Positions 4,987 through 44,868 of a stretch of 64,000 nt of DNA are shown here, in pieces. Each line of letters begins with the position of its first letter. Positions within the stretch are counted from its first letter, which is position 1. A model generated the notes under the pieces. That model made no database searches and had not been told where the DNA came from. It saw only the letters and a list, made by a program, of their open reading frames with translations. The stretch lies in IMG/VR virus record IMGVR_UViG_3300023172_003539, positions 1 to 64,000 of that record; one strand, 5' to 3'. Both the position numbers and the translations under genes were made by a program. The DNA comes from a virus (lineage: Duplodnaviria > Caudoviricetes).

Positions 4987-5913
4987 ATGAAAGAACTTTG
5001 GACCGAAAAATATAGACCTAAACAACTAAAAGAATATGTTGTCAGAGATGAAAATCAAAGAGAACAAATTCAAAGTTGGATCAAAGACGGAGCCATTCCT
5101 CATTTGTTGTTCTCAGGTGCTCCGGGTACGGGCAAGACCACATTGGCCAAGGTGTTGTTCCAGGAACTAAATGTAGATCCATATGACATACTGGAAATCA
5201 ACGCATCTAGAGAAAATTCAGTAGATACCGTCAGAGATAAAATTATAAACTTTGTACAGATCATGCCATTCGGAGCATACAAGTATGTGTTACTCGATGA
5301 GGCAGACTATATTACTCCCAACGGTCAAGCGGCATTGCGTGGCGTGATGGAGATGTATCATACATCGGCAAGATTTGTTTTGACCTGCAACTATCCCAAC
5401 AGGGTGATCCCGGCGCTACATTCAAGATGCCAAGGATTCCATATAGAGACATTAGACAAAAATGAGTTTACTGCTAGAATAGCCGAGATACTGATCGCAG
5501 AAAAAATTGAACCAAACATTGATTTGATAGACACATATGTCAAGGCCACATATCCCGATATGAGAAAATGTATCAATCTTGTGCAGATGAACTCACGTAA
5601 TGGTGTTTTACACGCACCAGATAAATCTGATAAAGGACAGGCTGATTATCGTTTACAAATGGTTGAATTATTTAAACAAGGAAAAATACTAGAAGCACGA
5701 AAACTAGTTTGCTCTCAGGCAAGACCCGAGGAAGTAGAAGAAATATTTAGATGGCTGTATGACAATCTCGATTTGATTTCAAAAGAAGATGATGGACAAG
5801 ACAAAGCAATATTGGCTATAAAACAAGGTCTCGTGGATCATTCGTTTGTTGCAGATCCAGAAATCAATTTAGCCGCAACAATGATAAAACTAGCGAGGAT
5901 ATCAAATGGGTAG
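4987..5913 (+). CDS. Clamp loader AAA+ subunit (RFC small subunit / T4 gp44-like)
   Basis: WTEKYRP, GAPGTGKT, EINAS, LLDEAD, ALHSRC. Confidence 0.95.
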   Translation: MKELWTEKYRPKQLKEYVVRDENQREQIQSWIKDGAIPHLLFSGAPGTGKTTLAKVLFQELNVDPYDILEINASRENSVDTVRDKIINFVQIMPFGAYKYVLLDEADYITPNGQAALRGVMEMYHTSARFVLTCNYPNRVIPALHSRCQGFHIETLDKNEFTARIAEILIAEKIEPNIDLIDTYVKATYPDMRKCINLVQMNSRNGVLHAPDKSDKGQADYRLQMVELFKQGKILEARKLVCSQARPEEVEEIFRWLYDNLDLISKEDDGQDKAILAIKQGLVDHSFVADPEINLAATMIKLARISNG

Positions 5914-20155: not shown

Positions 20156-20539
20156 ATGGTTAAGCAGATCACAACTAAAAACAAACAATCTTGGGGTTAT
20201 CACTACATGGTCGATTGTTCAGGTTGTAATGACAACATATCAGATAAAAAACAAATTTCAATTTTTGTAAAAGAATTAATTAAAAAAATAAAAATGAAAG
20301 CTCATGGTAAACCCACTATAGAATATCTTTTACCAGGCCATAAGAATGAGGGTTATAGTATGTTGCAGTTGATACACACCTCAAATCTAGCGGCACATTT
20401 TATGAGCAAAAGCAAAACTGCTTATTTCGACGTTTTCAGTTGCAAAAAATTTGATACAAAAATCGTTGATTTAACTGTAAAAAAATATTTTGCTCCAAAA
20501 AAAACCAAATCAAAATTTTTAACTCGACAAGCACCATGA
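20156..20539 (+). CDS. Pyruvoyl-dependent S-adenosylmethionine decarboxylase (SpeD)-like protein
   Basis: WGYHYMVDCSGC...GYS..QLIHTSNLAAHF...YFDVFSCKKFD. Confidence 0.8.
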   Translation: MVKQITTKNKQSWGYHYMVDCSGCNDNISDKKQISIFVKELIKKIKMKAHGKPTIEYLLPGHKNEGYSMLQLIHTSNLAAHFMSKSKTAYFDVFSCKKFDTKIVDLTVKKYFAPKKTKSKFLTRQAP

Positions 20540-21183
20540 AGTACGTTTTAATTTTATCATTCAGAGCACAAATTTACAGGTACGAACCCAGAGTTAGAGT
20601 ATACTTCAGAGACTCTATGATAGATGAATTTCATGTGTCTGAACATAAATTTGATGATCCAAAAAAACCAAAAATACTTTCGTACATCGTTGAAGTACCC
20701 AAAGATCTCCAAGAAACGGAAATAAAATTAAAAATTTTAAATCATGACAACAACTGGACCAACGGATTCATGACCAAAGATACCAATATCTGGTTGGAAG
20801 ATATACATTTTTTTCCTGAACCCCAAATGGATAACCTCTATCAATTCCATTGGTTTGCCAATAAAGGAGATTCCATTCATGAAAGATTTGAAAATATGAG
20901 AGTTAAATTAAGAGGTCATAATAATTCCGATGACAAAAACGGACTGTTTAATTTGATTGAATACGTGTCGTTTCATCGTATAGAAGGATTGCATAAGGGT
21001 GAAGAAGTTAAAGAAATAAGACATCTTAAATTTGGAGGTAGCGGCTATTATTCTGTCAAATTATATAAAAAATATGGAATGTTGATACCTAAAAATATGA
21101 AATATCCTCGAAAATTCTGGATTAGAAGGCCCGCATTCATACAAAAAGTGTATGAAGGTTACAAAAACTTATTCGATATCTAA
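20536..21183 (+). CDS. Hypothetical protein
   Basis: 215-aa ORF, ATGA overlap. Confidence 0.7.
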   Translation: MKYVLILSFRAQIYRYEPRVRVYFRDSMIDEFHVSEHKFDDPKKPKILSYIVEVPKDLQETEIKLKILNHDNNWTNGFMTKDTNIWLEDIHFFPEPQMDNLYQFHWFANKGDSIHERFENMRVKLRGHNNSDDKNGLFNLIEYVSFHRIEGLHKGEEVKEIRHLKFGGSGYYSVKLYKKYGMLIPKNMKYPRKFWIRRPAFIQKVYEGYKNLFDI

Positions 21184-27580: not shown

Positions 27581-30241
27581 ATGAGTTATATTGATGCATA
27601 TTACAAGAGAGATCAAGACAAAGTTTTTGTTGTCGAAAGAAACAAAAATGGAGAAAGAAAATTTGTAGAATATGATGCCAGATACGTATTTTATTATCCC
27701 GATAACAAAGGAAAACACAGAAGCATATTTGGTGAACCTTTACAAAAAGTTCAATCCAACACATATAGCAATTTCATAAAAGAACAACGTATAAGATCAA
27801 ATAAAAAACTTTATGAGCAGGATATTAATCCTGTGTTCCGTTGTCTCGAAGAGAATTATCTAGGCAAAGATGCTCCCAATCTAAATGTAGTATTTTTTGA
27901 TATTGAGGTAGACTTTGATCCTGAACGAGGATATTCTACCACGGATGATCCATTTATGCCTATAACAGCAATTACTTGTTATTTGAATTGGACCGATCAA
28001 TTAGTCACTTTTGCTGTACCACCTAAAAAATTGGGTTTTGAAAATGCCAAATTACAAGTAGAACGTTTCAGCAACGTGATGTTGTTTGAAAAAGAAAAAG
28101 ATATGCTTGATGCTTTTTTAACATTGATCGAAGAAGCAGATATATTATCAGGATGGAACTCGGAGGGATACGATATACCCTATACCGTAGGCAGAATACA
28201 AAAAGTGTTAAGTTCCGATGACACAAGGCGTTTATGTTTTTGGGGTGAGAAACCCAGAAAAAGAACCTTTGAAAAATATGGCAGAGAACAGATCAGTTAC
28301 GACTTAATTGGAAGAGTACATTTAGATTTACTTGAACTATATAGAAAATACACTTATGAGGAAAGACATTCGTATAGATTAGATGCCATAGGCGAGCATG
28401 AACTAGGAGAAAGAAAAACTGTGTACGAAGGATCACTAGATGCTCTGTATAATAACGATTTTGGATTGTTCATAGAATATAATAGACAAGACACGGCACT
28501 GCTGGCCAAACTTGAGAAGAAATTGAAGTTCATAGAACTGGCGAATGAGATCGCACACCAAAACACTGTTTTACTTCAAACAACAATGGGTGCAGTGGCG
28601 GTCACAGAACAGGCTATTGTGAATGAAGCACATCGAAGAGGAATGATTGTTCCGGGTAGAGTCAAAAGACAAGAAGGAGAGTCGACCCAGGCCGCAGGAG
28701 CATATGTGGCAACACCTAAAAAAGGATTGCATGATTGGATAGGAAGTTGTGATATAAACAGTCTATATCCTAGCGTGATTCGTGCATTGAACATGGGACC
28801 TGAATCTATTGTGGGACAAATACGTCCAATTATAACATCAGCAGAAATTAACAGAGCAATACATCAGAAGAAATCATTCGCATCGGCATGGGATAATCAA
28901 TTTGGTTCATGGGAGTATCAAGCAGTGATGAAACAAGATCGTGGTGTAGAAATTACAGTGGACTGGGAAGACGACACATCAGTCAAAATGTCCGCGGCAC
29001 AATTATACGAAATAATTTTTAATAGTAATAATCAATGGATGCTGTCTGCCAATGGTACGATTTTTACATACGAGTTTGAAGCCATCATTCCAGGACTATT
29101 GAAACGTTGGTATGCTGAAAGAAAAGAGATGCAACGCAAAATGCACGATGCCGGAGACAACGATATTGAACGAGAATTTTGGGACAAAAGACAACTGGTT
29201 AAAAAAATTAACTTGAACAGTTTGTATGGTGCAATCTTAAATCCAGGTTGCAGGTTCTTTGACATACGTATCGGACAATCTGTGACACTGACAGGCAGAT
29301 GTATCACAAAACACATGGCGGCAAAAACTAATGAAATTATAACGGGCGAGTATGATCACAAAGGAGATTCTATCATATATGGTGATACAGATTCTGTGTA
29401 TTTTTCTGCTTATAAGCCATTACAGAAAGAAATAACAGCAGGACAAATCCCATGGGAAAAAGAAAACGTTATTGCTTTATATGATAAAATATCATCTGAG
29501 GTGAATTCATCTTTTGCTGGATTCATGACCAAAGCATTTCATTGTCCAAAAAGCAGAGGAGAAGTCATAGCGGCAGGACGAGAACTTGTTGCGAGCAAAG
29601 GACTTTTTATCACAAAGAAAAGATATGCAGTTCTATATTTTGATAAAGAAGGACAAAGAACAGATACCGAAGGTAGCATGGGTAAAATGAAGGCAATGGG
29701 TCTTGATCTAAAAAGATCAGACACACCTGTATTTGTACAAGATTTTTTGAGTGAATTGTTGATGATGGTATTAACAAATAAAACCGAAGAAGATGTTCTC
29801 AAAAGAATATCAGAATTTAGGGCTGAATTCAAATCAAGACCCGGTTGGGAGAAGGGTTCTCCAAAAAGAGCCAATAAGATAACAGAATATCTCGGAAAAG
29901 AAAACAAACAAGGTCGTGCCAATATGCCAGGTCATGTTCGTGCCAGCATCAACTGGAATAAATGTAGAGAACTATACGGAGACAAATATTCTATGCCTAT
30001 CACAGATGGTGCAAAAGTAATTGTATGTAAATTAAAAAACAATCCATTAGATTATACTTCCATAGCATATCCAGTGGACGAGTTACGTATTCCAAAATGG
30101 TTCCAAGAATTACCATTTGATTCTGAAGCGATGGAATCTACCATCGTTGATCAAAAAATAGATAATCTAATAGGAGTATTAAATTGGGACGTACAATCGA
30201 CAGAAACAACCAATACGTTTAACAAACTTTTTGAATTTTAG
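27581..30241 (+). CDS. Family B DNA polymerase (T4 gp43-like)
   Basis: Exo FDIEV, GWNSEGYDIPY, YNRQD; pol DINSLYPS, KINLNSLYG, YGDTDS, KKRYA. Confidence 0.98.
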   Translation: MSYIDAYYKRDQDKVFVVERNKNGERKFVEYDARYVFYYPDNKGKHRSIFGEPLQKVQSNTYSNFIKEQRIRSNKKLYEQDINPVFRCLEENYLGKDAPNLNVVFFDIEVDFDPERGYSTTDDPFMPITAITCYLNWTDQLVTFAVPPKKLGFENAKLQVERFSNVMLFEKEKDMLDAFLTLIEEADILSGWNSEGYDIPYTVGRIQKVLSSDDTRRLCFWGEKPRKRTFEKYGREQISYDLIGRVHLDLLELYRKYTYEERHSYRLDAIGEHELGERKTVYEGSLDALYNNDFGLFIEYNRQDTALLAKLEKKLKFIELANEIAHQNTVLLQTTMGAVAVTEQAIVNEAHRRGMIVPGRVKRQEGESTQAAGAYVATPKKGLHDWIGSCDINSLYPSVIRALNMGPESIVGQIRPIITSAEINRAIHQKKSFASAWDNQFGSWEYQAVMKQDRGVEITVDWEDDTSVKMSAAQLYEIIFNSNNQWMLSANGTIFTYEFEAIIPGLLKRWYAERKEMQRKMHDAGDNDIEREFWDKRQLVKKINLNSLYGAILNPGCRFFDIRIGQSVTLTGRCITKHMAAKTNEIITGEYDHKGDSIIYGDTDSVYFSAYKPLQKEITAGQIPWEKENVIALYDKISSEVNSSFAGFMTKAFHCPKSRGEVIAAGRELVASKGLFITKKRYAVLYFDKEGQRTDTEGSMGKMKAMGLDLKRSDTPVFVQDFLSELLMMVLTNKTEEDVLKRISEFRAEFKSRPGWEKGSPKRANKITEYLGKENKQGRANMPGHVRASINWNKCRELYGDKYSMPITDGAKVIVCKLKNNPLDYTSIAYPVDELRIPKWFQELPFDSEAMESTIVDQKIDNLIGVLNWDVQSTETTNTFNKLFEF

Positions 30242-30253
30242 TAAATAACATAT

Positions 30254-31069
30254 ATGTTAAGCATCGAAGAAATTAAATTACTCATAGAAAAACTTAAAAA
30301 AATAAAAGGTACAGATTTCCAAAAAATACTTGATGATAATTTATCAATATTGGAAAACCTGGCTGAATCTGTCGACATCAATAATCAACAGGAAATAAAT
30401 CGACTAGACAAAACCAAAGAATGGTATGCTAAAGATTTAGATTTCACATATGAAAGAAAAGATCAGTTTGATGAAATGTTAACTAAAAAAGTCGAAGATA
30501 AGATCAAGATGTTTGCAAAAACTGGTGCTCAATCTATTCTTTATAATAGTTTAGAAATAGGCCCGGGATATGGAAGATTCAGTAGATTTTTCTTACCATG
30601 GAGATTAAATTATTATCTAGATCTGTTACCGCATTGTCAAGAAAAAATAAAAGCACTTTTTAAACCACAACAACACAAACTGATAAAATTTTATACAACC
30701 AACAGAACCAGTTGTCCAGAAATTGACGACAACGCAGTAAATTTTGTCTTCAGTTGGAACACATTTACTTTTTTTACTCAAGAACATATAAAAGAATATC
30801 TAACAGACATCAATAGAGTATTGTTACCAGGCGGATATGGATTTATACACTATGCAGATTGTCATTACGATTTCGATCTTCATGAAGCAAAACGTGGATA
30901 CTGGAATTATAATACCAAAACATCAATGAAAGAGATCACAGAAAGTTGTGGATATGAAGTAATTGAAATGGATCAATTTCGTCCTGGTGCCAACTATATA
31001 ATTTTCAAAAAACCTGGTAATAAAAATCCAGTATTATATAGTGCTTTAGAATTACCTGTAGAAAAATAA
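30254..31069 (+). CDS. Class I SAM-dependent methyltransferase
   Basis: LEIGPGYGRF, FVFSWNTF, RVLLPGG; TAAATA 6 nt upstream. Confidence 0.85.
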   Translation: MLSIEEIKLLIEKLKKIKGTDFQKILDDNLSILENLAESVDINNQQEINRLDKTKEWYAKDLDFTYERKDQFDEMLTKKVEDKIKMFAKTGAQSILYNSLEIGPGYGRFSRFFLPWRLNYYLDLLPHCQEKIKALFKPQQHKLIKFYTTNRTSCPEIDDNAVNFVFSWNTFTFFTQEHIKEYLTDINRVLLPGGYGFIHYADCHYDFDLHEAKRGYWNYNTKTSMKEITESCGYEVIEMDQFRPGANYIIFKKPGNKNPVLYSALELPVEK

Positions 31070-31078
31070 ATTAAACAT

Positions 31079-31107
31079 TTGACTTTAATCTAAATAATCT
31101 ATATAAT
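31079..31107 (+). promoter_or_regulatory. Sigma70-type promoter (clamp-dpdA operon)
   Basis: TTGACT-N17-TATAAT. Confidence 0.7.
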
Positions 31108-31116
31108 AGTTTTATT

Positions 31117-31854
31117 ATGATAGATATCTTAAAAGACATAGTCAAACACACACACGGTTTAGGCTTTCTAGACCTTGTTAAAATTACAGGCAACGAATCT
31201 GAAACAACAATAGATTCTATGGCTGAAGACAGATCAGTGATCTTGCAAGGATCTTTTCACAAACCACAAGCAGAAATGACGGGTACTTTTGGTATGCCTC
31301 AGTTGAACAAACTGGACATACACTTGAAGTGTCCTGAGTATAAAGACAAAGCAAACATCACTGTAATCACAGGTACTAGAAATGGTGCAGAAACTCCTAC
31401 AGGTATTCATTTTGAAAATGAAAAAGGAGATTTTAAAAACGATTACAGATTTATGAATGCTGAAATTATCAACGAAAAACTTAAAACTGTAAAATTTAAA
31501 GGTGTTAAGTGGAATGTTGAAATTGAGCCTACTGTGGCCAGTGTACAAAGATTTAACTTCCAGGCAACTGCAAATACAGAACACAATACATTTGTTGTGA
31601 GAACCGAAGATGGAAAACTTATTTTCACTTTTGGTGATCAAGCATCACACGGTGGAGAATTTGTATTCGCTGATAATGTATCAGGTAGTCTTAACAAAGG
31701 GTGGAGTTGGCCGGTAGCACAGGTATTACAGATATTGAAATTATCAGATTCGGCAAAAGTTACTTTACACTTCTCTAATGAGGGTGCGATGCAGGTCACT
31801 GTTGACTCTGGACTTGGAAAATATCAATATATCATACCAGCACAGGCACAATAA
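31117..31854 (+). CDS. Putative DNA polymerase sliding clamp (gp45/PCNA-like)
   Basis: 245 aa with alternating beta/alpha pattern ending in YQYIIPA (PCNA-like terminal strand); next to polB; clamp loader is in the window. Confidence 0.7.
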   Translation: MIDILKDIVKHTHGLGFLDLVKITGNESETTIDSMAEDRSVILQGSFHKPQAEMTGTFGMPQLNKLDIHLKCPEYKDKANITVITGTRNGAETPTGIHFENEKGDFKNDYRFMNAEIINEKLKTVKFKGVKWNVEIEPTVASVQRFNFQATANTEHNTFVVRTEDGKLIFTFGDQASHGGEFVFADNVSGSLNKGWSWPVAQVLQILKLSDSAKVTLHFSNEGAMQVTVDSGLGKYQYIIPAQAQ

Positions 31855-33302
31855 TGACTGAACAAAATAACAGGCAGGAACATTTAGGAGAATTGAGTCG
31901 AGACTTCGCAGTGTTCTTGCCTGCTATATCAAATTTTTATAATACCTTTATTAGCAAACAAAGAGTCACAGAAGGTACACATATTCCCAAAGAAAGAATA
32001 CCTGTTGGATTTGAAAATGGTGTGGAAGGACTAAACTTTATAAATCCAGAAAAAGGTATGTTCACTTATCCTACAGCATTATACTCGGCGGGTCATGCTT
32101 GTCTAGACATGGACAAAGTGGGAGATCGAGATCATATGTTTGTAAACAGGGATCGTAAATTCAGCACCATAGTGGGAGATTCGGGTGGATATCAAATTGG
32201 TCGAGGCGTAATACAATTTGATTGGAAAGATTTTGAAGGTAACAAGGCCAACAAAGTTAGAAGTGATATATTAAATTGGTTAGAACTCACATCAGACTGG
32301 GCAATGACTTTGGATGTTCCAACTTGGGCGGCAGATGATTTAAATTCACCTAAAACAGGATTAAAAAGTTTTCGAGATACACTAGACGGAACAATCTATA
32401 ATAACAATTTTTTTCAAAAGAACAGATTGGGTCAAACTAAATTTTTAAATGTACTACAAGGCGACGACTGGGAAACAGCACAAACTTGGTACGATGCCGT
32501 AAAAGATTTTGAATTCGAAGGATGGGCAATGGGCGGTATCAATATGTGTGATATGGAAGTCATGTTGAAGCGTTTGATCATAATGAGAGATGAGAAAAAA
32601 CTGGACGGTAAAGACTGGATGCACGTACTGGGTACATCGCAACTGGATTGGGCTTGTTATCTAACACAAATACAAAGACAAGTTAGAAAATATATTAATC
32701 CTAATTTTACAATAAGTTTTGATTCAGCATCCGCTTTCTTATCAACAGCGAATGGATTAGTTTACACTCATAATGTGTTCACACCATCTAGATGGTCATT
32801 TATAATGGACAAGGCACCGGATGATAAAAGATTAAAGAATTCAAAAATACCTTTTCCTTTCCAAAGTGCTATTGGTAATAGACTTACCATGGGAGATGTC
32901 TGTTGGTACGGAGAGGGAGATCTAAATAAAAACAACAAAGAAGGTAAAACTTCGTGGGACTCTTTTTCATATGTATTAATGATGGCTCACAATGTGTATA
33001 ATCAAATTAGAGCAGTACAGGTTGCCAACGACATGAACGATATAGAAAGTGTCGTGCATAGACCAGAAGTAAAACACTGGCGTAAAACCAAAGCATCAGA
33101 TACCACAGACGAGCATAGTGTTTATGTTCCTAGAAATATATTATATTTCAATACATTTGTTGAAGAAGTATTCACCAGCGAAAAACCAATGGAATTAATA
33201 GAAAATGCGAGAAGTTATCTTGCAGATATAAGAGGAACAAGATGGGCAAGAGCCACAGGTGGTGGTAAAGGTAAAAACAATTTTAGTTCATTATTTGAAT
33301 AG
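31854..33302 (+). CDS. dpdA: TGT-fold transglycosylase, DpdA-like (7-deazaguanine insertion into DNA)
   Basis: DSGGYQ, LDVP, NVLQG, GWAMGG, HVLG, SFDSAS; near folE/queE/yhhQ and coupled to the clamp gene. Confidence 0.75.
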   Translation: MTEQNNRQEHLGELSRDFAVFLPAISNFYNTFISKQRVTEGTHIPKERIPVGFENGVEGLNFINPEKGMFTYPTALYSAGHACLDMDKVGDRDHMFVNRDRKFSTIVGDSGGYQIGRGVIQFDWKDFEGNKANKVRSDILNWLELTSDWAMTLDVPTWAADDLNSPKTGLKSFRDTLDGTIYNNNFFQKNRLGQTKFLNVLQGDDWETAQTWYDAVKDFEFEGWAMGGINMCDMEVMLKRLIIMRDEKKLDGKDWMHVLGTSQLDWACYLTQIQRQVRKYINPNFTISFDSASAFLSTANGLVYTHNVFTPSRWSFIMDKAPDDKRLKNSKIPFPFQSAIGNRLTMGDVCWYGEGDLNKNNKEGKTSWDSFSYVLMMAHNVYNQIRAVQVANDMNDIESVVHRPEVKHWRKTKASDTTDEHSVYVPRNILYFNTFVEEVFTSEKPMELIENARSYLADIRGTRWARATGGGKGKNNFSSLFE

Positions 33303-33528: not shown

Positions 33529-34080
33529 ATGCAAAGAGATTATAAAAATGGACAAAGTGAGAGTGTAGGTATTTTTTCAGGTATCGAAATAGAACACACA
33601 CAGGCCTATGGTTTACAAACATTATTTTTAGCACGTAATGATCTTTCATACGACGAGATCAAGACATACGCAGAAAAAGTAAATGCCAAAGCAATTTACT
33701 ATGGAGCAAATAGAACATATATGCACAATCATGGAATGCAACTAGCACAGATGAAACGATTAATCGATGACGGTTATTTTGTGACAGTTGATTATCCTCA
33801 TGATATCCACAAAGAAGTAAAAGAAAAATTTAAGATATTGTGGAACAACGAAAAGTTTATTCCTTTTTGTTCAATAATATTTCCAAATTCCGAAGATGAT
33901 GATCAACTTTGCATCAAAGTCGATGACGTTGACTTTAATAAGACCAATCCTGGAGTCTGGAGCATGAGCATGAATCATTTTAAACAGACCGCAGGATTTA
34001 CGTCATGGAACGAATACAAACAAGATGAACCAATAGAGGAGAACAAATGGATACTGAGCACCAACATGATCAAGCACTAA
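33529..34080 (+). CDS. Hypothetical protein in the deazaguanine cluster
   Basis: 183-aa ORF between dpdA-like and dpdL-like genes. Confidence 0.75.
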   Translation: MQRDYKNGQSESVGIFSGIEIEHTQAYGLQTLFLARNDLSYDEIKTYAEKVNAKAIYYGANRTYMHNHGMQLAQMKRLIDDGYFVTVDYPHDIHKEVKEKFKILWNNEKFIPFCSIIFPNSEDDDQLCIKVDDVDFNKTNPGVWSMSMNHFKQTAGFTSWNEYKQDEPIEENKWILSTNMIKH

Positions 34081-34469
34081 AAGAACAGGCCAACAAGGCT
34101 AGTAAAATGATATGGGTAACCTTTCAAAAAGAAGGTATGCACAAATACCCAGCGGCACTTACTGATCCCAAATTAGCAACAGGTGACGAATATGATGTCA
34201 GTTTTCTAGGACATCCACATAGACACATATTTCATTTCAAAGTAGCCATAGAGGTGTTCCATGATGACAGGGATATAGAATTCATACAGTTCAAGAGATG
34301 GTTGTTGAATCTGTACAAGGAAGGCACATTACAGAACGACTTTAAGAGTTGTGAGATGATGAGCGATGATTTATATGTAGAAATAGCAAAGAAATATCCA
34401 GGAAGACGTATCGAAATAGACGTGTCAGAAGATGGAGAGAATGGATCACACGCAGTCTATGACAAGTAA
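34047..34469 (+). CDS. QueD-like T-fold protein with LxxxHRHxF motif (DpdL-like CDG decarboxylase)
   Basis: EGMH...FLGHPHRHIFHF...DRDIEFI..K...SCE...VSEDGENG; lacks the QueD CxxxHGH. Confidence 0.7.
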   Translation: MDTEHQHDQALKEQANKASKMIWVTFQKEGMHKYPAALTDPKLATGDEYDVSFLGHPHRHIFHFKVAIEVFHDDRDIEFIQFKRWLLNLYKEGTLQNDFKSCEMMSDDLYVEIAKKYPGRRIEIDVSEDGENGSHAVYDK

Positions 34470-35400
34470 GCACACAAAAGTTTTGATTATAGGTTCTGGT
34501 CCTGCAGGATACACTGCGGCAATATATGCCTCTAGAGCAATGTTAAAACCAATTTTAGTACAAGGCACTCAACCCGGTGGACAATTGACTATAACCACAG
34601 ATGTTGAAAACTATCCGGGTTTCGGAGACGTTATACAAGGACCATGGTTAATGGAACAAATGGAAAAACAAGCACGTGCAGTTGGAACAGATATTATTTT
34701 CGATATGATCAATAAGGTAGATTTCAGTAAAAAACCTTTCGAAGCAGTGGGAGATAGTGGAACAATTTATACGGCAGATTCTGTGATCATATCAACAGGT
34801 GCTCAAGCGAGATGGTTGGGTTTAGAAAAAGAAAAAAAATTTTCGGGTTTTGGTGTAAGTGCCTGTGCCACGTGTGATGGATTCTTTTTCAAGGATAAAG
34901 AAGTTGCTGTTGTTGGTGGAGGAAATAGTGCAGTTGAAGAAGCATTGTACCTATCACACATAGCCAGCAAGGTGCATCTGATACATCGAAGAGATAGCCT
35001 AAGAGCAGAAAAAATAGCACAAGATAGATTGTTTGCAAATGAAAAAATTAATGTGGTATGGAACTCTAGAGTTAAGGACATCATAGGAACGGATGATCCT
35101 ATAAATGTCACGGGAATAAAACTCGAGAACACAAAAGATGGCACAGAGTCCACAATGAACATCGACGGTTTATTTGTGGCCATAGGACATGATCCAGCAA
35201 CAAAACTTTTTAAAGAACAAATTAACATGGATGATGAGGGTTATATCATAACCAAACCCGATTCAACTGCTACTAACATACCGGGAATTTATGCGGCGGG
35301 CGATGTCAAGGACAAAACATACAGACAGGCAGTCACAGCGGCGGGCATGGGTTGTATGGCGGCCTTGGAAGCAGAAAAATTTGTGGCAGGAAATTCATGA
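34459..35400 (+). CDS. trxB: Thioredoxin-disulfide reductase
   Basis: GSGPAG, GGQL...VENYPG, CATCDG, GGGNSA, AGDV...QAVTAAGMG. Confidence 0.96.
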   Translation: MTSKHTKVLIIGSGPAGYTAAIYASRAMLKPILVQGTQPGGQLTITTDVENYPGFGDVIQGPWLMEQMEKQARAVGTDIIFDMINKVDFSKKPFEAVGDSGTIYTADSVIISTGAQARWLGLEKEKKFSGFGVSACATCDGFFFKDKEVAVVGGGNSAVEEALYLSHIASKVHLIHRRDSLRAEKIAQDRLFANEKINVVWNSRVKDIIGTDDPINVTGIKLENTKDGTESTMNIDGLFVAIGHDPATKLFKEQINMDDEGYIITKPDSTATNIPGIYAAGDVKDKTYRQAVTAAGMGCMAALEAEKFVAGNS

Positions 35401-35717
35401 AAGAAATCAGCATAAAAGAAAAGAGAGTAACAACAAGACAAGAAAATCTACCCATAGAGGGTGGTGGCTTGAATGCTTCATACACGACAGTGGACGCAGT
35501 GGCCAATATATGTACCACCGCTGGAAACCTAGGCATGAAGTATGGCAAAGACTTCATCTGGTCACATACCGATTACGATGACGACATGGACGAGTGTATC
35601 ACTCTGTTGGTAAAGGAAGACAAATACGAGTCATTCCTGCACCTGGCCCTACAGAATGAACACAGAATCAAACACACATTTACGGGTCAAATAAAACTTA
35701 CAAAGGAGAGAAAATAA
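35397..35717 (+). CDS. Hypothetical protein
   Basis: ATGA overlap with trxB stop; start MKEISIKE. Confidence 0.65.
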   Translation: MKEISIKEKRVTTRQENLPIEGGGLNASYTTVDAVANICTTAGNLGMKYGKDFIWSHTDYDDDMDECITLLVKEDKYESFLHLALQNEHRIKHTFTGQIKLTKERK

Positions 35718-35718
35718 A

Positions 35719-36264
35719 ATGAAAGGTTTAAAAATACCTAAAGTAACATTCAGAGTCAGAGAAGGTGATTCTGTTTTAGAAGAAGGCTGTTCGTTTGACG
35801 AAGGAAAATGGATAGACAAAACAACTGATGACTATTTCAAAGGAAAAAGAGTGGTATTGTTCAGTTTACCTGGTGCATTTACACCCACTTGTACATCAAC
35901 ACAACTTCCGGGATTCGAAGAGAACTATGATAAAATCAAAGGTTTAGGAATCGATGAAGTGTATTGCTGTTCAGTCAATGATACATTTGTAATGAATGCA
36001 TGGGCAGAAGTGCTTAAAATTAAAAATGTAAAAGTTATTCCAGATGGATCTGGTAACTTTACAAGATTTATGGGTATGCTTATTGGTAAAAATCATTTAG
36101 GTTTTGGAAGCAGAAGTTGGAGATACATGGCAGTAATCAATGATGGCACAGTTGAGGCATGGTGGCAAGAACCAGGAATCAACAACGACGGTTCGGATAA
36201 TGATCCATATGTTGAGTCCACACCTGAAAATATGTTAAAGTATCTAGAACAAAACAATGGCTAA
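35719..36264 (+). CDS. Peroxiredoxin (Prx5/redoxin family)
   Basis: LPGAFTPTC, SVNDTFVMNAW, PDGSG, RSWRY. Confidence 0.93.
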   Translation: MKGLKIPKVTFRVREGDSVLEEGCSFDEGKWIDKTTDDYFKGKRVVLFSLPGAFTPTCTSTQLPGFEENYDKIKGLGIDEVYCCSVNDTFVMNAWAEVLKIKNVKVIPDGSGNFTRFMGMLIGKNHLGFGSRSWRYMAVINDGTVEAWWQEPGINNDGSDNDPYVESTPENMLKYLEQNNG

Positions 36265-36445: not shown

Positions 36446-36788
36446 ATTAATGTTTGAGCCTGAACCAAAAGTAAAATGCAACGTGGATGCTATGTTCCGA
36501 TGTTATGCTGAAAATTATCTAAGTGATTATCCAGAATTCCAATGGGGTGGTTACATTGTGATGAATGTGTTTGAAATGAAATACAACGATAATGCGGCGG
36601 GAGAACCTTTGTATCAATTTGTTGCTTCTAATGTTGATGATAAATTGTTGCAAAATATTCAAGATTATGTGAATCAAAATCCAATGCACGGTTATTACAC
36701 ACACATACACTATTCTAAGAATGGTGAAAACGAGCAATCAGTGATGCCACTAGAAGGCACACCTTATATTAGAGGAGAAGGCATATAA
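36435..36788 (+). CDS. Hypothetical protein
   Basis: 117-aa ORF with overlapping starts/stops. Confidence 0.6.
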   Translation: MNIRLMFEPEPKVKCNVDAMFRCYAENYLSDYPEFQWGGYIVMNVFEMKYNDNAAGEPLYQFVASNVDDKLLQNIQDYVNQNPMHGYYTHIHYSKNGENEQSVMPLEGTPYIRGEGI

Positions 36789-37957
36789 TGAAAATATTTT
36801 ACATGGGTCTAGAACCATACGAAGGCAGATATACTCTACAACTACAAGAGTGGACTGAACGTGTGTATAAAAAAAGAGGTATAGACTATGTGGTTGTGCC
36901 AGGCACCACAATAGACGATACAAAAGCAATCAGTGTTGGACAAGTGCTTGACGCACACGGCAGATCATATTTTGGCATGAGCCAGATGATGAATCTTGTA
37001 CAGATGATGCGTAATGGTAGTGTCACAAGTAAAGACATTGTGTTCTTTGAAGACATGTTCCAACCAGGTATGGAGTCACTACCTTACATATTACACCAAG
37101 TGGAAGAAAAACACAGACCAACAATATACCTAAGATGTTTGGCACAAGCGATCGACCCAGATGACTTCGTACACGTGTGGGGCATGAGCAAGTGGATGAG
37201 TATGTACGAACAGATGTGTAATGAAATTCCTAATGTTCACATATTGGCCACCAATGAAGAAATGGTGGCACATATGCGTATAGCAAATTGGCGAGCACCC
37301 ATCTATAACATCTCGGGTTTGAGTTTTGGAAAACAAGAAGTGCTATCAAGAGTCAAATCAATAAAGCCTTTTGATCAAAGAGCAAAAAGAGTTTGTTTTG
37401 CGGCTAGATTTGATCAAGAAAAACAGCCAGACTTTTATATGGATCTGGCAACTAGAGTCAGAAAGCAAGATCCATCTGTTGAGTTTGCAGTTTTCTCAGG
37501 AGGACCTTTAAGAAGTAATAATGAAAAATACCTTACAAGAGCAAGAGAACTTGAATCCAAAGGAGATTTAAAAATTTACGAAAATTTGAAAAAAGATCAA
37601 TATTATGAACTGTTAGCAGATTCAAGAGTGCTGTTTAATTGTGCATTGCAGGACTGGGTATCAAACACAGTGTCAGAAGCAGACACATTAGGTTGCAACG
37701 TATTATTTCCAGCATACAGATCATTTCCAGAAACGTTTTCTAATGACAGGGATAGATTGTATATCCCATGGAGCCAAGAGGACGCATACCAAAAATTAAA
37801 TATTTTATTAATGAGGCCTCATAACAATATTGGCAAACTGTCAGATTGGACCGACGGAACAATCGATAGAATGATCGATATCATGACCGGAAAAGGCGAG
37901 CAATGGAGAAGAGATGGAAAACATTACAGAGACTGGGTCTCAGAATCTAAATATTAA
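36788..37957 (+). CDS. GT-B (GT4-like) glycosyltransferase
   Basis: VCFAARFDQEKQP, YYELLADSRVLF...QDWVSNTVSEADTLGC..LFP...SFPE. Confidence 0.85.
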   Translation: MKIFYMGLEPYEGRYTLQLQEWTERVYKKRGIDYVVVPGTTIDDTKAISVGQVLDAHGRSYFGMSQMMNLVQMMRNGSVTSKDIVFFEDMFQPGMESLPYILHQVEEKHRPTIYLRCLAQAIDPDDFVHVWGMSKWMSMYEQMCNEIPNVHILATNEEMVAHMRIANWRAPIYNISGLSFGKQEVLSRVKSIKPFDQRAKRVCFAARFDQEKQPDFYMDLATRVRKQDPSVEFAVFSGGPLRSNNEKYLTRARELESKGDLKIYENLKKDQYYELLADSRVLFNCALQDWVSNTVSEADTLGCNVLFPAYRSFPETFSNDRDRLYIPWSQEDAYQKLNILLMRPHNNIGKLSDWTDGTIDRMIDIMTGKGEQWRRDGKHYRDWVSESKY

Positions 37958-38954
37958 AGGAACTAATAAATCTGTATTAGTGGTCGGTGGTGCCGGATAC
38001 ATTGGTTCTCACACAGCAAAAGAATTAAAGAAAAACGGATACACTCCTGTTGTTGTAGATAGAGACATCACTTCCAAGCCATGGGCAACTCAATATGGTC
38101 CAGCCTATGAGTTAAATCTTCCACAAAACATCGAAACCATAGATGAGATTGTTAAAAGACACAACATTGACAGTTGTATACACTTTGCGGCTCACACTAA
38201 AGTTGGTGAAAGTGTAGCCGACCCATCAAAGTATTATATTAATAATGTACTAATGACGTTTAGATTAATTGAAAAATTAAAATCACTTGACGTAAACACA
38301 TTTGTTTTTAGTTCTAGTGCCGCTGTCTACGGAGTACCAGAAAATGGAACTGCATACGATACGCAAGAAAAACTACTTCCTATCAATCCATATGGTAGAT
38401 CAAAACTAATGATTGAACATATATTACAGGACTATCATCGTGCGTATGGATTTGCCAGTGTAAGTTTACGATATTTCAATGCCGCGGGTGCAGATGCTGA
38501 AGCAGAAATTGGAGAATTAAGAGAAGATGAATCACATATTATACCACTTGCCATCGAAGCAGGAAAAAATGTAAAAGAATTTAGATTATTCGGGACAGAT
38601 TTTGATACACCCGACGGAACCTGCGTCAGGGATTATGTACACGTAACAGATCTTGCTCACGGACACGTGCTGGCTTTACAAAAAGCTCATAAAGAAAAAA
38701 TATGTGCAAGTTATAATTTAGGATCTGGTATTCCAACCAGCAACAGAGAACTTCTAAATACTGTACAAAAATTTACAGGTGCTATGAAAATAAAAGAAGA
38801 AAATAGAAGACCGGGTGATCCTCCTGTGCTGGTAGCAGATATTTCTAGAACTACCAAAGAATTAAATTGGAAACCTACACAAAGTTCTATTGACAACATA
38901 GTAGGAACTGCTGTAAAATGGTACAATAAGATAAATCAAAAAAAGATAAATTAA
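37914..38954 (+). CDS. galE: UDP-glucose 4-epimerase
   Basis: GGAGYIGSH, HFAA..VGESV, SSSAAVYG, YGRSK, LRYFNAAGA, DGTCVRDYVHV. Confidence 0.95.
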   Translation: MENITETGSQNLNIKGTNKSVLVVGGAGYIGSHTAKELKKNGYTPVVVDRDITSKPWATQYGPAYELNLPQNIETIDEIVKRHNIDSCIHFAAHTKVGESVADPSKYYINNVLMTFRLIEKLKSLDVNTFVFSSSAAVYGVPENGTAYDTQEKLLPINPYGRSKLMIEHILQDYHRAYGFASVSLRYFNAAGADAEAEIGELREDESHIIPLAIEAGKNVKEFRLFGTDFDTPDGTCVRDYVHVTDLAHGHVLALQKAHKEKICASYNLGSGIPTSNRELLNTVQKFTGAMKIKEENRRPGDPPVLVADISRTTKELNWKPTQSSIDNIVGTAVKWYNKINQKKIN

Positions 38955-38955
38955 A

Positions 38956-39684
38956 ATGGATGAAAATATATTAAAAGATAGTTGGTTACCACCAAAACCC
39001 GTTAGCGAAGAAATCAAAGAAAGAATTAAAAAGGCCGGAAAAAGATTTTATGCGGCTGATAATATTAGCGAATTTATTGAATCGGGTGAAAAAGAAAAAT
39101 TAATTGACGAGTTGCAACAAAAATTCGAATCTGTTTTGGACAGTTTAATCATTGACAGGGAAAACGATCCCAACAGCAACGGTACAGGTAGAAGACTTGC
39201 TAAAATGTATGTTAATGAGATAATGTCTGGTAGATATTATCCAAAACCAGATGTGACAGCATTTCCAAACGAGGACGGAAGATATGATCAATTAATTGTG
39301 GTAAGAGCAGATATTAAAAGTATGTGTTCTCATCATCACCAACCGGTAACGGGAGTTTGTTATATCGGTTGTTTACCTGGCAAAAAACTGATAGGATTAA
39401 GCAAATACACAAGGATAGCACAGCATTTAGGACATAGAGGTCATTTACAAGAAGAATTAACGGAAATGATTGCCTATGAAATCACGAAACTAACCGACAG
39501 TCCGGCTGTGGGAGTTTATATACGAGCAAGACACGGCTGTTGTGAAAATAGAGGAATCAGAAGTGCCAACTCAAGCACACAGACCACAGTGTTAAAAGGA
39601 TTATTGAAAAATGATCCAGCACTGAAAAACGAATTTATGCACAATATACAATTACAAGAAACACAGTGTGGACCAATTGGGTAA
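38956..39684 (+). CDS. folE: GTP cyclohydrolase I
   Basis: SMCSHH, IGLSKYTR, LQEELT, HGC...RG. Confidence 0.95.
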   Translation: MDENILKDSWLPPKPVSEEIKERIKKAGKRFYAADNISEFIESGEKEKLIDELQQKFESVLDSLIIDRENDPNSNGTGRRLAKMYVNEIMSGRYYPKPDVTAFPNEDGRYDQLIVVRADIKSMCSHHHQPVTGVCYIGCLPGKKLIGLSKYTRIAQHLGHRGHLQEELTEMIAYEITKLTDSPAVGVYIRARHGCCENRGIRSANSSTQTTVLKGLLKNDPALKNEFMHNIQLQETQCGPIG

Positions 39685-39934
39685 AAAAAAGAAAACAAAA
39701 GAAAAACTAACATCAGACGGAATATGGTCTTATTCTGGAGATTATGGAGATCTTAATGTAGGAACATTATCCGAGTCAATGTCTGTTGATTTTGGTGATT
39801 TACACACACAACTGAATCTAGATTTTGATGATGAAAAATTAAAAAACAAATATCCTGCATTAAAAGATGCATGGGAACACTATAATAATGTATTAGATAT
39901 GTGTAGAGCAAAGGAAAAAGAAGATGAGAATTGA
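39668..39934 (+). CDS. Hypothetical protein
   Basis: 88-aa ORF; KYPALKDAWEHY. Confidence 0.6.
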   Translation: MDQLGKKKKTKEKLTSDGIWSYSGDYGDLNVGTLSESMSVDFGDLHTQLNLDFDDEKLKNKYPALKDAWEHYNNVLDMCRAKEKEDEN

Positions 39935-40982
39935 TTATAACATACATTTAGATTATTCGGATGTGTTATTACAACCAAAAAGATCTACGTTGAGTTCAAG
40001 ACGTGATGTAGATATATTGAGAGAATTTAAATTTAGAAATAGTGGCAAGACACTTTCATATGTGCCCATCATGGCATCAAACATGGATGGTGTTGGCACG
40101 TTTTCTATGGCAAGAGTGCTACAAGAATTTAAAATGTTGACTGTGATCAGGAAACACTATACCCTGGATGATTGGAAACAAGCCGCAGGCACAGGACTTA
40201 AATTCAAATATGTATCTGCCTGTGTTGGAACAGGTGCCATATGGGACGAGAACGCACAGGACTATCAAACACTCAAACAGGTAATGAGTGCATTTCCAGA
40301 CATACCTTGTATCACAATTGATGTTGCCAATGCTTATCATGAATCATTTGTGGACTTTGTTGATAGAATTAGAACAGAATATCCAGACAAAGTGATCATA
40401 GCAGGCAATGTGGTTACACCAAACATGACAGAAGAATTAATTATCAAAGGTGCTGATGTGGTCAAAGTTGGAATAGGTCCAGGCTCGGTTTGTACCACAA
40501 GAACACAAACAGGTGTAGGTGTTCCACAATTTTCAGCAATCATGGAATGTTCAGATGCCGCAAATGGAGTTGGTGGACACATCATTGCTGACGGTGGTTG
40601 TACACAACCAGGCGATGTTGCCAAAGCATTGGGCGGAGGTGCTCATTTTGTGATGTTGGGTGGAATGTTGGCAGGACACGATGAAGGTGAAACAGAATTA
40701 AGAGATGGCAAGAGATATTTTTACGGAATGAGTTCTCAAACAGCATTGGACACACACGGACAAAGAAAAGATGGATACAGAGGCACAGAAGGTAAAACCG
40801 TTGTATTGGATGACAAAGGTCCGGTCAAAGACACTGTGGAACAGATACTGGGCGGAGTGAGAAGCACCTGCACTTACATTGGAGCAAGAAGAATTAAAGA
40901 TATGCCCAAGGCGGCACATTTTGTTAGAGTTAATAATGTGATCAATAGAGTTTATGACAGATACGAAACTGACAACAAGTAA
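39924..40982 (+). CDS. guaC: GMP reductase
   Basis: PKRSTLSSR, SNMDGVG, IDVANAY, KVGIGPGSVCTTR, ADGG, FYGMSS; no CBS domains. Confidence 0.93.
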   Translation: MRIDYNIHLDYSDVLLQPKRSTLSSRRDVDILREFKFRNSGKTLSYVPIMASNMDGVGTFSMARVLQEFKMLTVIRKHYTLDDWKQAAGTGLKFKYVSACVGTGAIWDENAQDYQTLKQVMSAFPDIPCITIDVANAYHESFVDFVDRIRTEYPDKVIIAGNVVTPNMTEELIIKGADVVKVGIGPGSVCTTRTQTGVGVPQFSAIMECSDAANGVGGHIIADGGCTQPGDVAKALGGGAHFVMLGGMLAGHDEGETELRDGKRYFYGMSSQTALDTHGQRKDGYRGTEGKTVVLDDKGPVKDTVEQILGGVRSTCTYIGARRIKDMPKAAHFVRVNNVINRVYDRYETDNK

Positions 40983-41424
40983 ATTATACTTCACAAATAT
41001 ACAAATGAGGAATGCTCTCATTCAGATCGAAGACAAAATGGTTCACACTCCGTGGATGCCTACAGTGATTATGGGTATCAACAGAGGAGGTTGTATTCCT
41101 GGTGTATATTTGTCTCATAGATTAAAAGTTGCACACGAAGTACTTGATATTAGATTGAGAGATCATAAAAGCACACCTAACTTAAACAATCTAAAATCAA
41201 ATCATGAACAAGGTCATAGAATATTAATCATAGACGACATCAATGACAGCGGAGCAACATTTCAATACATCATTGACAACTTCGGAAAACATGACAACAT
41301 AAAATTTGCTTCTCTAATCAATAATAAACCATCACCGGTAAAAATGGATTTTCATGGTTACGATATTGATAAGGATACCAATCCACAATGGGTAGTATTT
41401 CCATGGGAAGAATGGGACAAGTAA
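40954..41424 (+). CDS. Purine phosphoribosyltransferase (Gpt/XGPRT-like)
   Basis: GINRGG, ILIIDDINDSGAT, WVVFPWE. Confidence 0.88.
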   Translation: MTDTKLTTSKLYFTNIQMRNALIQIEDKMVHTPWMPTVIMGINRGGCIPGVYLSHRLKVAHEVLDIRLRDHKSTPNLNNLKSNHEQGHRILIIDDINDSGATFQYIIDNFGKHDNIKFASLINNKPSPVKMDFHGYDIDKDTNPQWVVFPWEEWDK

Positions 41425-41498: not shown

Positions 41499-42146
41499 AT
41501 GTTTAAATCACTACTAGCAGGTGTAGATAAGACACTTGTAAGAAATCTAGTAATTCTACACACACTCGTTATCGCTGTGTCGAACTATCTAGTCACGATC
41601 AGATTTGATTTATTCCCCGGTGCGGATCTTCCATTATTTGGATCGTTTCCATTAGCGGCGGCGGCATTCACATTTCCGATTGTTGTAGTAGCAACTGACT
41701 TGACTGTAAGGTTGGTCGGCAAGGAAGCGGGAAGGGCCGTTGTAGCAATGGCGATCATTCCGGCTATCGTGGCATCAGTACTGGTACTGTTGGCACTGGG
41801 TGATCCACACGCATACAGAGTTGGATTCGCATCAGGTACAGCATACGCGATCGGTACCATGCTGGACGTGTACGTCTTCCAAGCGATCAGAGAAAGATCT
41901 GACAACTGGTGGGCGGCACCGGCACTTTCGACCATCGCGGCAAACATAATCGATACATACTCATTCTTTTATGTTGCGTTCGCAGGATCCCTCGACGCAG
42001 AGGGCAAACTGAGTTGGATTGGTGCCAACTGGCATATCGTTGCACAGAACAACACATTGACCAAGATTGTGGTTGGCTTGATAGTATTCTTACCAGCATA
42101 TGGTATACTATTGAACAGACTGCAAGTTATAGGCAAGAAAAAATAA
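41499..42146 (+). CDS. yhhQ: Queuosine-precursor (preQ0/preQ1) transporter, YhhQ/VUT family
   Basis: AVSNYLV, FTFPIVVVATDLTVRLVG...R, LDVYVFQ..R..WWAAP..ST..NIIDT..F..AF; AGGAGG SD. Confidence 0.9.
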   Translation: MFKSLLAGVDKTLVRNLVILHTLVIAVSNYLVTIRFDLFPGADLPLFGSFPLAAAAFTFPIVVVATDLTVRLVGKEAGRAVVAMAIIPAIVASVLVLLALGDPHAYRVGFASGTAYAIGTMLDVYVFQAIRERSDNWWAAPALSTIAANIIDTYSFFYVAFAGSLDAEGKLSWIGANWHIVAQNNTLTKIVVGLIVFLPAYGILLNRLQVIGKKK

Positions 42147-43974: not shown

Positions 43975-44868
43975 ATGGAAAAAAAATATTATTATTCAGA
44001 GATATTCTATTCGATACAAGGCGAAGGACATTATACCGGTATTCCCACTGCTTGGATACGTTTCTTCTTGTGTAATCTACAGTGCAACGGATTTGGACAA
44101 TTAAATCCAACCAATCCAGACACTTATGAATTGCCATTTGAAGAGTTTGATGTTTCTACTGTGACAAGAGTAGAGGATTTACCTGTATGGAATAAAGGAT
44201 GTGATTCGTCATACACTTGGGCAAAAAAATATAAACATTTAATGGGTCAGGCTACTGCATCGGAACTAGCAGACAAAGTCATTGATATATTAAAAAATGA
44301 TTCTAATCCAACAGGATCGTTTCTGCATCCTGTGTCTAGGCAACAACAACATCTTTGTATCACAGGTGGGGAACCACTTATGCCTCAGTCTCAAAAAGCA
44401 TTTATAGAAGTCTACAAAGAACTAGTGAAAAGAAATAACATACCGGAATCTATTACATTTGAAACTAACGGCACACAAAAACTCACAGATGAATTTAAAG
44501 AACTTGTTAGAACTATAGATACAGAGATATTTTTTTCAATATCACCTAAACTATGGACCGTAGCCGGAGAAAAACGAGAAAAAGCAATAAGGCCTGATAT
44601 AGTTAAGGAATACAGAGAATTATCATTACAAGGACAACTAAAATTTGTTCTAGGCAACAAAGACGAACAATGGAATGAAATGGAAGAGGTTCTGAAACTG
44701 TTTAGGTCGACAGGTATCGATTATCCTGTATGGATCATGCCAGTGGGTGCTAGGGAAGAAGAACAGTCAGCAACAGCAGGTGAAGTGGCAAAAAGAGCCT
44801 TCCAGAGAGGATATAATGTGGCGGCAAGAGTACACGTTCACTTGTTTGGTAATGCTATTGGAACATAA
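43975..44868 (+). CDS. queE: 7-carboxy-7-deazaguanine synthase (radical SAM)
   Basis: EIFYSIQGEG..TG.P..WIR...CNLQC...CDS, ITGGEP, ETNGT, SISPK, RVHV. Confidence 0.92.
   Translation: MEKKYYYSEIFYSIQGEGHYTGIPTAWIRFFLCNLQCNGFGQLNPTNPDTYELPFEEFDVSTVTRVEDLPVWNKGCDSSYTWAKKYKHLMGQATASELADKVIDILKNDSNPTGSFLHPVSRQQQHLCITGGEPLMPQSQKAFIEVYKELVKRNNIPESITFETNGTQKLTDEFKELVRTIDTEIFFSISPKLWTVAGEKREKAIRPDIVKEYRELSLQGQLKFVLGNKDEQWNEMEEVLKLFRSTGIDYPVWIMPVGAREEEQSATAGEVAKRAFQRGYNVAARVHVHLFGNAIGT

Follow-up and report, generated by a model that had tools for sequence, protein, structure and literature searches.

We find that a DNA-modifying enzyme of an uncultured and very abundant marine phage, a relative of the jumbo phages, ends in the same short peptide as the DNA polymerase of that phage, and that modification of the DNA is probably coupled to the machinery of replication. 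The enzyme is a 482-amino-acid transglycosylase of the DpdA3 type, encoded within positions 1 to 64,000 (the whole stretch that was analyzed, here called the window) of the 83.6-kilobase (kb) IMG/VR record IMGVR_UViG_3300023172_003539. In the reading favored here, to which we assign a probability of about 70%, the polymerase-like tail of this long-form DpdA3 would dock on a PCNA-like sliding clamp of the phage and hold base exchange close behind the replication fork, by analogy with the clamp clients of phage T4. The genes concerned follow one another on the + strand: a family-B polymerase (27581-30241), a methyltransferase-like gene (30254-31069), the gene for a 245-amino-acid protein that is the putative clamp (31117-31854) and the gene for the 482-amino-acid protein (31854-33302). 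The stop codon of the 245-amino-acid gene overlaps the start of the 482-amino-acid gene in the sequence TAATG, confirming the coupling of the two genes that had been proposed in an initial annotation of the window, made by a model from the letters alone.

The DNA polymerase and DpdA3 end in the same motif

The polymerase (27581..30241, + strand) is a T4 gp43-like family-B enzyme of 886 amino acids, recognized by Pfam DNA_pol_B (E = 1.2e-35), an exonuclease domain (5.6e-20) and phrog_262 (4.6e-198). Its final ten residues (about 30209-30238) form a hydrophobic-acidic tail, N-x-F-x-x-L-F-E-F. Translation of the window shows that N-x-F-x-x-L-F-E closes both this polymerase and the 482-amino-acid protein, in which it is preceded by a Gly/Lys-rich stretch, just as the initial annotation had described. 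The polymerase tail is a stable feature of related loci, where [L/M/F]-F was found within the last 6 residues of all 96 distinct polymerase C-termini (96/96) and [F/Y]-x-x-[L/M/I/F]-F within the last 12 residues of 92. Several relatives have a split or interrupted polymerase gene; in phage PA5oct (L001:617-5843) the interruption is by a homing-endonuclease gene, and at four loci (L031, L053, L092 and L157) the best polymerase match spans only the N-terminal 520-606 residues.

In the structural model of the 482-amino-acid protein the folded tRNA-guanine transglycosylase (TGT) body stops near residue 460. Residues 465-476 have predicted local distance difference test (pLDDT) values below 50, and the means of the 10-residue blocks from residue 461 on are 50, 48 and 57. 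The low values at residues 465-476 argue that a flexible linker carries the motif outside the folded body, and we regard this linker together with the terminal N-x-F-x-x-L-F-E peptide (33246..33302, + strand) as the proposed clamp-docking tail. Within the otherwise variable linker, L480 and F481 are at least 90% conserved among 26 aligned homologues. In a set of 109 complete, distinct DpdA3 open reading frames (ORFs) from related viral contigs, the last 60 residues held [F/Y]-x-x-[L/M/I/F]-F in 72 cases and [L/M/F]-F in 97, and a clamp gene lay upstream on the same strand within 2.5 kb in 101. The tail is retained in several lineages of relatives, down to about 35% identity.

The initial annotation placed the tail at the very C-terminus of the enzyme. 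This is correct for the window's own clade (at least 82% identity), of which the terminal position is a special feature; in most relatives some 25 further residues come after the motif, an acidic extension that typically closes in the pattern [D/E]3-x-L-x-x-L-E, an acidic run before L-x-x-L-E (for example L016:6553-8190, L021, L028 and, in PA5oct, L001:7007-8629) and that is lost in the window's clade. This second, acidic motif is confined to DpdA3 in the gene neighborhoods studied, with 40 of its 40 occurrences in this family.

We also asked which other proteins end in this way, searching for F-x-x-[L/M]-F-[D/E/S/T/G] in the last 45 residues of 1420 complete ORFs of at least 80 amino acids from 83 related loci. 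The pattern was carried by 127 ORFs (75 polymerases, 45 DpdA3 homologues and 7 others) and is thus almost confined to the polymerase and DpdA3 in these neighborhoods (120/127). The resemblance of the two tails is more than chance. Across the record's 83.6 kb, a looser tail pattern matched the polymerase, the 482-amino-acid protein, a 215-amino-acid ORF and two short ORFs (95 and 51 amino acids) on the coding strand, and the remaining matches listed lay on the strand opposite the genes. The 215-amino-acid ORF (20536-21183) has an L-F-D-type tail and is a possible third tail carrier; it had no family match in Pfam, PHROG or NCBIfam, and only one relative was found, 96% identical.

A large relative of 353 kb (99% complete, 429 ORFs) offered a genome-wide view. 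The motif anchored at the very C-terminus was found there only in the polymerase and in one DNA methyltransferase; the DpdA3 of this genome carries its own copy of the motif subterminally, some 30 residues before the C-terminus. With a looser 30-residue pattern, 13 other ORFs matched as well. The methyltransferase (L178:3015-3881 in genome G001) is of the DNA N6/N4 type (Pfam, 1.7e-29), with a basic linker followed by an L-F-E-type tail. Its sole relative found (80% identity) lacks the tail and its gene is absent from 5 partial related genomes, and for these reasons the methyltransferase tail was not counted as support. A degenerate DNA pattern for the motif, applied to two large relatives, was too strict to be of use.

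The tails of cognate polymerases and DpdA3 proteins vary together

The DpdA3 tail changes together with the tail of the cognate polymerase. In Vibrio phage 2.275.O the first Phe is missing from both tails and a Trp is terminal in both; in the P0256 clade (37-40% identity) the same L-F-D-F type of core ends both tails; and at locus L164 a Phe-Phe core replaces Leu-Phe in both, with the last four residues identical. In an automated test on 135 loci, the last 12 residues of the polymerase were compared with the last 45 residues of DpdA3, using one representative per lineage. With representatives chosen at 70, 60 and 50% identity (n = 25, 15 and 7), the similarity of cognate tails was matched or beaten by 10, 186 and 286 shuffles per 20000, respectively, numbers to be read with the proviso that shuffling only partly controls for lineage relatedness. 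This test supersedes a permutation of 7 hand-picked lineage pairs, which had given 98/5040. The co-conservation of the tail in orthologues, which the initial annotation had named as a check on its proposal, is therefore present, and it takes the form of a DpdA3 tail that tracks its cognate polymerase.

The protein encoded upstream of dpdA3 is a predicted sliding clamp

The protein encoded at 31117..31854 (+ strand, 245 amino acids) is, on the evidence of its modeled fold, a PCNA-like sliding-clamp protomer. An AlphaFold2 monomer model computed from 19 sequences, down to 30% identity, reached a mean pLDDT of 92.5 and a predicted template-modeling score (pTM) of 0.88. Foldseek returned at least 500 PDB matches to this model at E <= 0.001, with PCNA in all the matches listed; the best PCNA match (E = 4.2e-12; template-modeling (TM) scores of 0.72/0.69) extended over the whole chain. 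In the BFVD viral library the matches, at about 1e-8, were to viral PCNAs and to sliding clamps of the T4 type, and language-model features indicated gp45 and PCNA clusters (0.93-0.94). The initial annotation's whole proposal hung on this protein being a clamp, and a high-confidence model matching both PCNA and phage clamps supports that identity.

The assignment rests on the fold because sequence methods are nearly blind to this family. Its PHROG family is one of unknown function. In hhalign comparisons the family scored 72% against the T4 gp45-family alignment when alignment A3 was used and 33.5% with alignment A8, in the same full-length register, and the comparison with the single T4 gp45 sequence gave 0.6%. 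In the fold ranking the window clamp is nearer to PCNA than to gp45, and it has no sequence-family match.

A clamp gene follows the polymerase gene also in phages Phosso, Atu_ph07, GAP32 and SCTP-2, and the clamp homologue carries the annotation PCNA in PAC2 and beta sliding clamp in Phosso. Scans with the Vibrio clamp and with the representative P0280 as queries returned no relatives. A clamp-loader ATPase of the T4 gp44 / RFC-like type is encoded elsewhere in the window (4987..5913, + strand), identified by phrog_168 'clamp loader of DNA polymerase' (2.8e-76) and by Pfam AAA and DNA_pol3_delta2, with orthologues in all five of five related jumbo-phage records. A gp45 profile run on these 5 records revealed no other clamp, in a search that had no positive control.

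The 482-amino-acid protein is a long-form DpdA3

The product of 31854..33302 (+ strand) had been labeled DpdA-like with a TGT fold, and structural comparison, profile alignment and orthology agree with this label. Its model has a pLDDT of 91.8 and a pTM of 0.91. Each of the best 50 Foldseek matches in the PDB is a tRNA-guanine transglycosylase, at E about 1e-8 and a probability of 1.00, with TM scores of 0.5-0.56 when normalized by target length; no solved DpdA structure is among these 50. A PDB profile search with the family gave 38 weak matches, 36 of them TGT. In hhalign, the family profile aligned with E. coli Tgt at 83.6% (E = 8.1e-6, 176 columns), and this alignment brings the D-S-G-G-[Y/F]-Q motif and two catalytic or base-binding Asp positions into register with the family. 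Across 68 homologues, S78, D109, S110, G112, P156, H257 and D290 are invariant, and G111 and D154 are conserved at 90% or more.

A Pfam scan of the 482-amino-acid protein, which includes TGT (PF01702) and DpdA (PF23859), gave no match, and a weak TGT match was seen in 3 of the 68 family members (best E = 0.0045). PF01702 likewise had no match in 5 phage records, one of which contains a listed DpdA2, and the Pfam test is therefore insensitive for phage DpdAs.

The closest link to a named enzyme is the PA5oct orthologue QCG76197.1, which is 39.7% identical to the 482-amino-acid protein over 99% of the length. Hutinet et al. (2023, PMC10516641; Supplementary Data S1) enter this protein in their DpdA3 column, alongside FolE, QueD, QueE and DpdL; it was not found in the text of the psiBLAST sheet of that paper. 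The enzyme family is thus already known and named, the PA5oct orthologue having been placed under DpdA3, a DNA enzyme. We conclude that the 482-amino-acid protein is a long-form DpdA3-type enzyme with a TGT fold, and that the enzyme as such is not new.

The window enzyme shares its fold and catalytic motifs with the DpdA3 subfamily (PMC10516641), and it differs from the prototypes in length, the long form having 480-600 amino acids compared with 259-290 for the DpdA3 of phiST and Ahp1. Additional features of the long form are a C-terminal region made of helices, a linker that is disordered and the polymerase-like tail, and we found no mention of them in the accessible text of PMC10516641. A hidden Markov model of the 482-amino-acid family, run on the Ahp1 and CPt10 records, gave no match in either (0/2), the short Ahp1 DpdA3 included, and hhalign gave a weak alignment with Ahp1 DpdA3 (1.25%, 56 columns around the catalytic Asp). 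When viral contigs were scanned with alignment A7 for short, tail-less family members, the same abundant clade made up most of the matches, some new lineages appeared, and true short forms were absent.

Comparison with known clamp clients and proposed mechanism

Polymerase-like clamp-binding tails on other proteins, the T4 precedent to which the initial annotation appealed, are documented. The C-termini of gp43, gp55 and gp33 carry highly similar clamp-binding motifs that are interchangeable and stand on a variable linker, and the RB69 clamp has been crystallized with the C-terminal 11-mer of its polymerase in a hydrophobic patch (PMC2988020). In the T4 record, the tails of gp43 and gp55 have one hydrophobic-acidic core, which is terminal in gp43 and lies four residues from the end in gp55. 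DpdA3 resembles these clients of the T4/RB69 gp45 clamp in having a short C-terminal hydrophobic-acidic peptide, a flexible linker and a likeness to the cognate polymerase, and the window polymerase is itself gp43-like. In contrast to T4, where the non-polymerase clients are transcription factors, the proposed client here would be a DNA base-exchange enzyme.

According to Hutinet et al. (2023, PMC10516641), all 7-deazaguanine marks in DNA are inserted after replication by DpdA enzymes, and phages with DpdA3 replace all of their guanines, compared with 0.1-30% for other DpdAs. Tethering may offer an answer to how an exchange enzyme completes a genome of hundreds of kb, by giving processive access to new DNA. 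In the mechanism that we infer, which extends to the peptide-clamp contact, the sliding, the timing of modification and the identity of the base, the gp44-like loader would place the PCNA-like clamp on primer ends. The DpdA3 tail would then dock in the hydrophobic client pocket of the clamp, by analogy with T4 gp43, gp55 and gp33, with the clamp supplied from the translationally coupled gene immediately upstream of dpdA3. Held by the clamp on freshly made duplex, the enzyme would slide along and exchange guanines in the double-stranded phage DNA for 7-deazaguanine made by FolE, QueD, QueE and DpdL, close behind the fork.

Clamp docking, if true, would account for the complete replacement seen in DpdA3 phages. 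It would perhaps also explain why DpdA3 could not be made to work in an E. coli test system (PMC10516641), as DpdA3 may depend on a clamp and a loader of its own, and it would yield a practical rule for reconstituting such systems, namely to co-express clamp and loader. A more far-reaching version holds that long-form DpdA3 proteins are true clamp clients that carry out processive exchange of every guanine behind the fork, that the acidic motif docks a further replisome protein so that the enzyme is held with two hands, and that hypermodification enzymes use the clamp as a toolbelt; we put this forward tentatively, and would judge its chances to be slightly below even.

The Dpd system of bacteria, in which bDpdA is paired with the ATPase DpdB (PMC10164549), has in common with the window a TGT-family enzyme that inserts a 7-deazaguanine into DNA. 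It differs in that bDpdA works with DpdB and modifies less than 0.1% of guanines (PMC10516641), whereas DpdB is not evident in the window and the proposed helper is a sliding clamp.

A parallel outside phages comes from eukaryotes. DNMT1 is recruited to PCNA via a PCNA-interacting-protein (PIP) box, so that a DNA-modifying enzyme is tethered to the replication clamp and new DNA is marked soon after synthesis. That system differs from the one proposed here in being eukaryotic, in transferring a methyl group rather than swapping a base, in using a different motif and in being experimentally established. Clamp docking by DpdA3, if true, would be a phage counterpart of this clamp-coupled maintenance methylation and, as far as the searched literature shows, the first case of a base-exchange DNA-modification enzyme described as a clamp client.

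The initial annotation knew of no earlier description of such a coupling for Dpd systems. The literature searched, whose coverage did not extend to the supplementary PDF of PMC10516641, likewise contained no paper linking DpdA or 7-deazaguanine to a sliding clamp, with the addition that the enzyme family already has a name. Clamp terms occur together with 'deazaguanine' in two papers, one a review of the replisome and the other on a Plasmodium polymerase, which are unrelated as judged by their titles and the beginning of their abstracts. The enzyme family and the kind of clamp-client motif are therefore each known, their combination is not described in the searched literature, and the comparative evidence for it is strong.

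Evidence against clamp docking and alternative explanations

Several observations weigh against docking of DpdA3 on the clamp. The motif is short, and among 110 full-length cluster representatives of the wider family only 40 have so much as a loose L-F motif within their last 45 residues. Of the 72 DpdA3 homologues with the strict motif, 61 have more than 4 residues after it, usually the acidic extension. The evidence from co-variation carries the incomplete control for relatedness noted above and also has exceptions: when 7 representatives were used, the cognate pair of L128 came 5th of 7 and that of Phosso 6th of 7, and the DpdA3 tails of L129 and L130 have no clear L-F core. The DpdA3 of the T4-like phage Ahp1, a short form of 290 amino acids, has no such tail, and tethering is therefore not a general requirement of DpdA3. 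As to the clamp, its family had no sequence match in Pfam (E <= 0.01, and for 12 members E <= 10) or in NCBIfam (7 members), a PDB profile search gave 0 matches, and the PA5oct homologue (L001:5924-6670) bears the annotation 'structural protein', which derives from mass spectrometry of virions.

The alternative that fares best is that the shared peptide docks on another replisome partner, such as a single-strand-binding protein, the helicase/primase or the clamp loader, which would recruit DpdA3 to the fork without making it a clamp client. The motif alone names no receptor, gp45 offers the gp43 tail more than one site and shares the same face with the clamp loader (PMC2988020), and the second acidic C-terminal motif of most DpdA3 relatives suggests a further partner. 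However, in the only family studied the equivalent polymerase tail binds the clamp (PMC2988020), and the gene directly upstream of dpdA3, overlapping it here, encodes a protein with a confirmed clamp fold and is found in this position in 101 of the 109 cases, so that we consider recruitment by another partner unlikely.

A second alternative accepts the clamp as receptor and gives the tail a regulatory role, either in competition with the polymerase, so that synthesis pauses or stops, or as a mark on clamps left behind on finished DNA. No evidence for regulation was found, and the complete modification of DpdA3 genomes (PMC10516641) fits a scanning enzyme better than a switch. This possibility is accordingly quite improbable, even though the clients of a clamp are competitors for a single pocket (PMC2988020) and the aromatic residue that closes the polymerase tail is usually missing from the DpdA3 motif, which may therefore bind more weakly.

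It is very improbable that the likeness is a functionless by-product of low-complexity, fast-evolving C-termini. Such an origin would draw on the shortness of the motif, on the chance L-F patterns in 7 of the 1420 neighborhood ORFs outside both families, on the loose matches scattered in the 353-kb genome and on the methyltransferase tail that is absent in an 80%-identical relative, yet it is opposed by the conservation of L480 and F481 at 90% or more in an otherwise variable linker, by the persistence of the motif to about 35% identity in several lineages and by cognate tails that are more alike than shuffled ones. Finally, it is hardly credible that the enzyme is a tRNA-guanine transglycosylase acting on host or phage tRNA rather than on DNA, since, against best structural matches that are all tRNA enzymes with no solved DpdA among the best 50, its PA5oct orthologue is classed as DpdA3 together with DpdL, FolE, QueD and QueE (PMC10516641), its gene lies within a replication module and ends in a polymerase-type tail, and viruses with these pathways carry 7-deazaguanines in their DNA (PMC10516641).

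7-Deazaguanine pathway genes and predicted product

Downstream of dpdA3, the window contains several genes for the synthesis of 7-deazaguanines, all on the + strand. A DpdL homologue, a predicted 7-carboxy-7-deazaguanine decarboxylase, lies at 34047..34469 and in tblastn is 56% identical to PA5oct QCG76199.1 and 46% to Ahp1 QIW86898.1, both of which are listed as DpdL (PMC10516641). GTP cyclohydrolase I (FolE), which catalyzes the first step of the pathway, is encoded at 38956..39684 (Pfam GTP_cyclohydroI, 4.4e-38), and a QueE-like radical-SAM (S-adenosylmethionine) enzyme, the 7-carboxy-7-deazaguanine synthase, at 43975..44868 (phrog_2076, 4.1e-54; 34% identity to PA5oct QueE). A transporter of the YhhQ/Vut_1 type for 7-deazaguanine precursors is found at 41499..42146 (Pfam Vut_1, 1.7e-20), with 38% identity to a homologue in Vibrio phage 2.275.O. 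QueC had no Pfam match among the 84 window ORFs, the record being a partial genome. The combination of FolE, QueE and DpdL with no QueC found argues that the inserted base is probably 7-deazaguanine itself, and the predicted product, from gene content, would be 2'-deoxy-7-deazaguanine.

Other genes are interleaved with this pathway. Between DpdL and FolE (36788-38954) are a group-1 glycosyltransferase and a UDP-glucose-4-epimerase-like gene, and in PA5oct a related glycosyltransferase-like gene lies just after its DpdA3. Genes for a thioredoxin reductase, a peroxiredoxin, a GMP reductase and a phosphoribosyltransferase (34432-36264 and 39924-41424) are also interspersed among the deazaguanine genes, which suggests purine salvage and redox support for the deazaguanine pathway. 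In the Cellulophaga phage phiSM (L110:5850-6932) a DpdA1/QueC/QueD/QueE cluster adjoins a gene annotated as a DNA polymerase processivity factor, and from this arrangement the association of deazaguanine clusters with clamp genes may reach beyond the long-form DpdA3.

Other genes of the locus

The gene between polymerase and clamp (30254..31069, + strand) encodes an S-adenosylmethionine-dependent methyltransferase-like protein of 271 amino acids (Pfam Methyltransf_25, 3.4e-07; Methyltransf_11, 4.6e-07). The L-F motif is absent from the tail of this protein, and the gene plays no part in the relation between the polymerase and DpdA3 tails. The insert was seen only in the window's clade; in relatives at 50-65% identity the polymerase and clamp genes are directly adjacent. 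Further downstream, the RNase H / 5'-3' exonuclease of the window (46185-47171) and of related loci has a different C-terminal motif of its own, which is strongly conserved across relatives.

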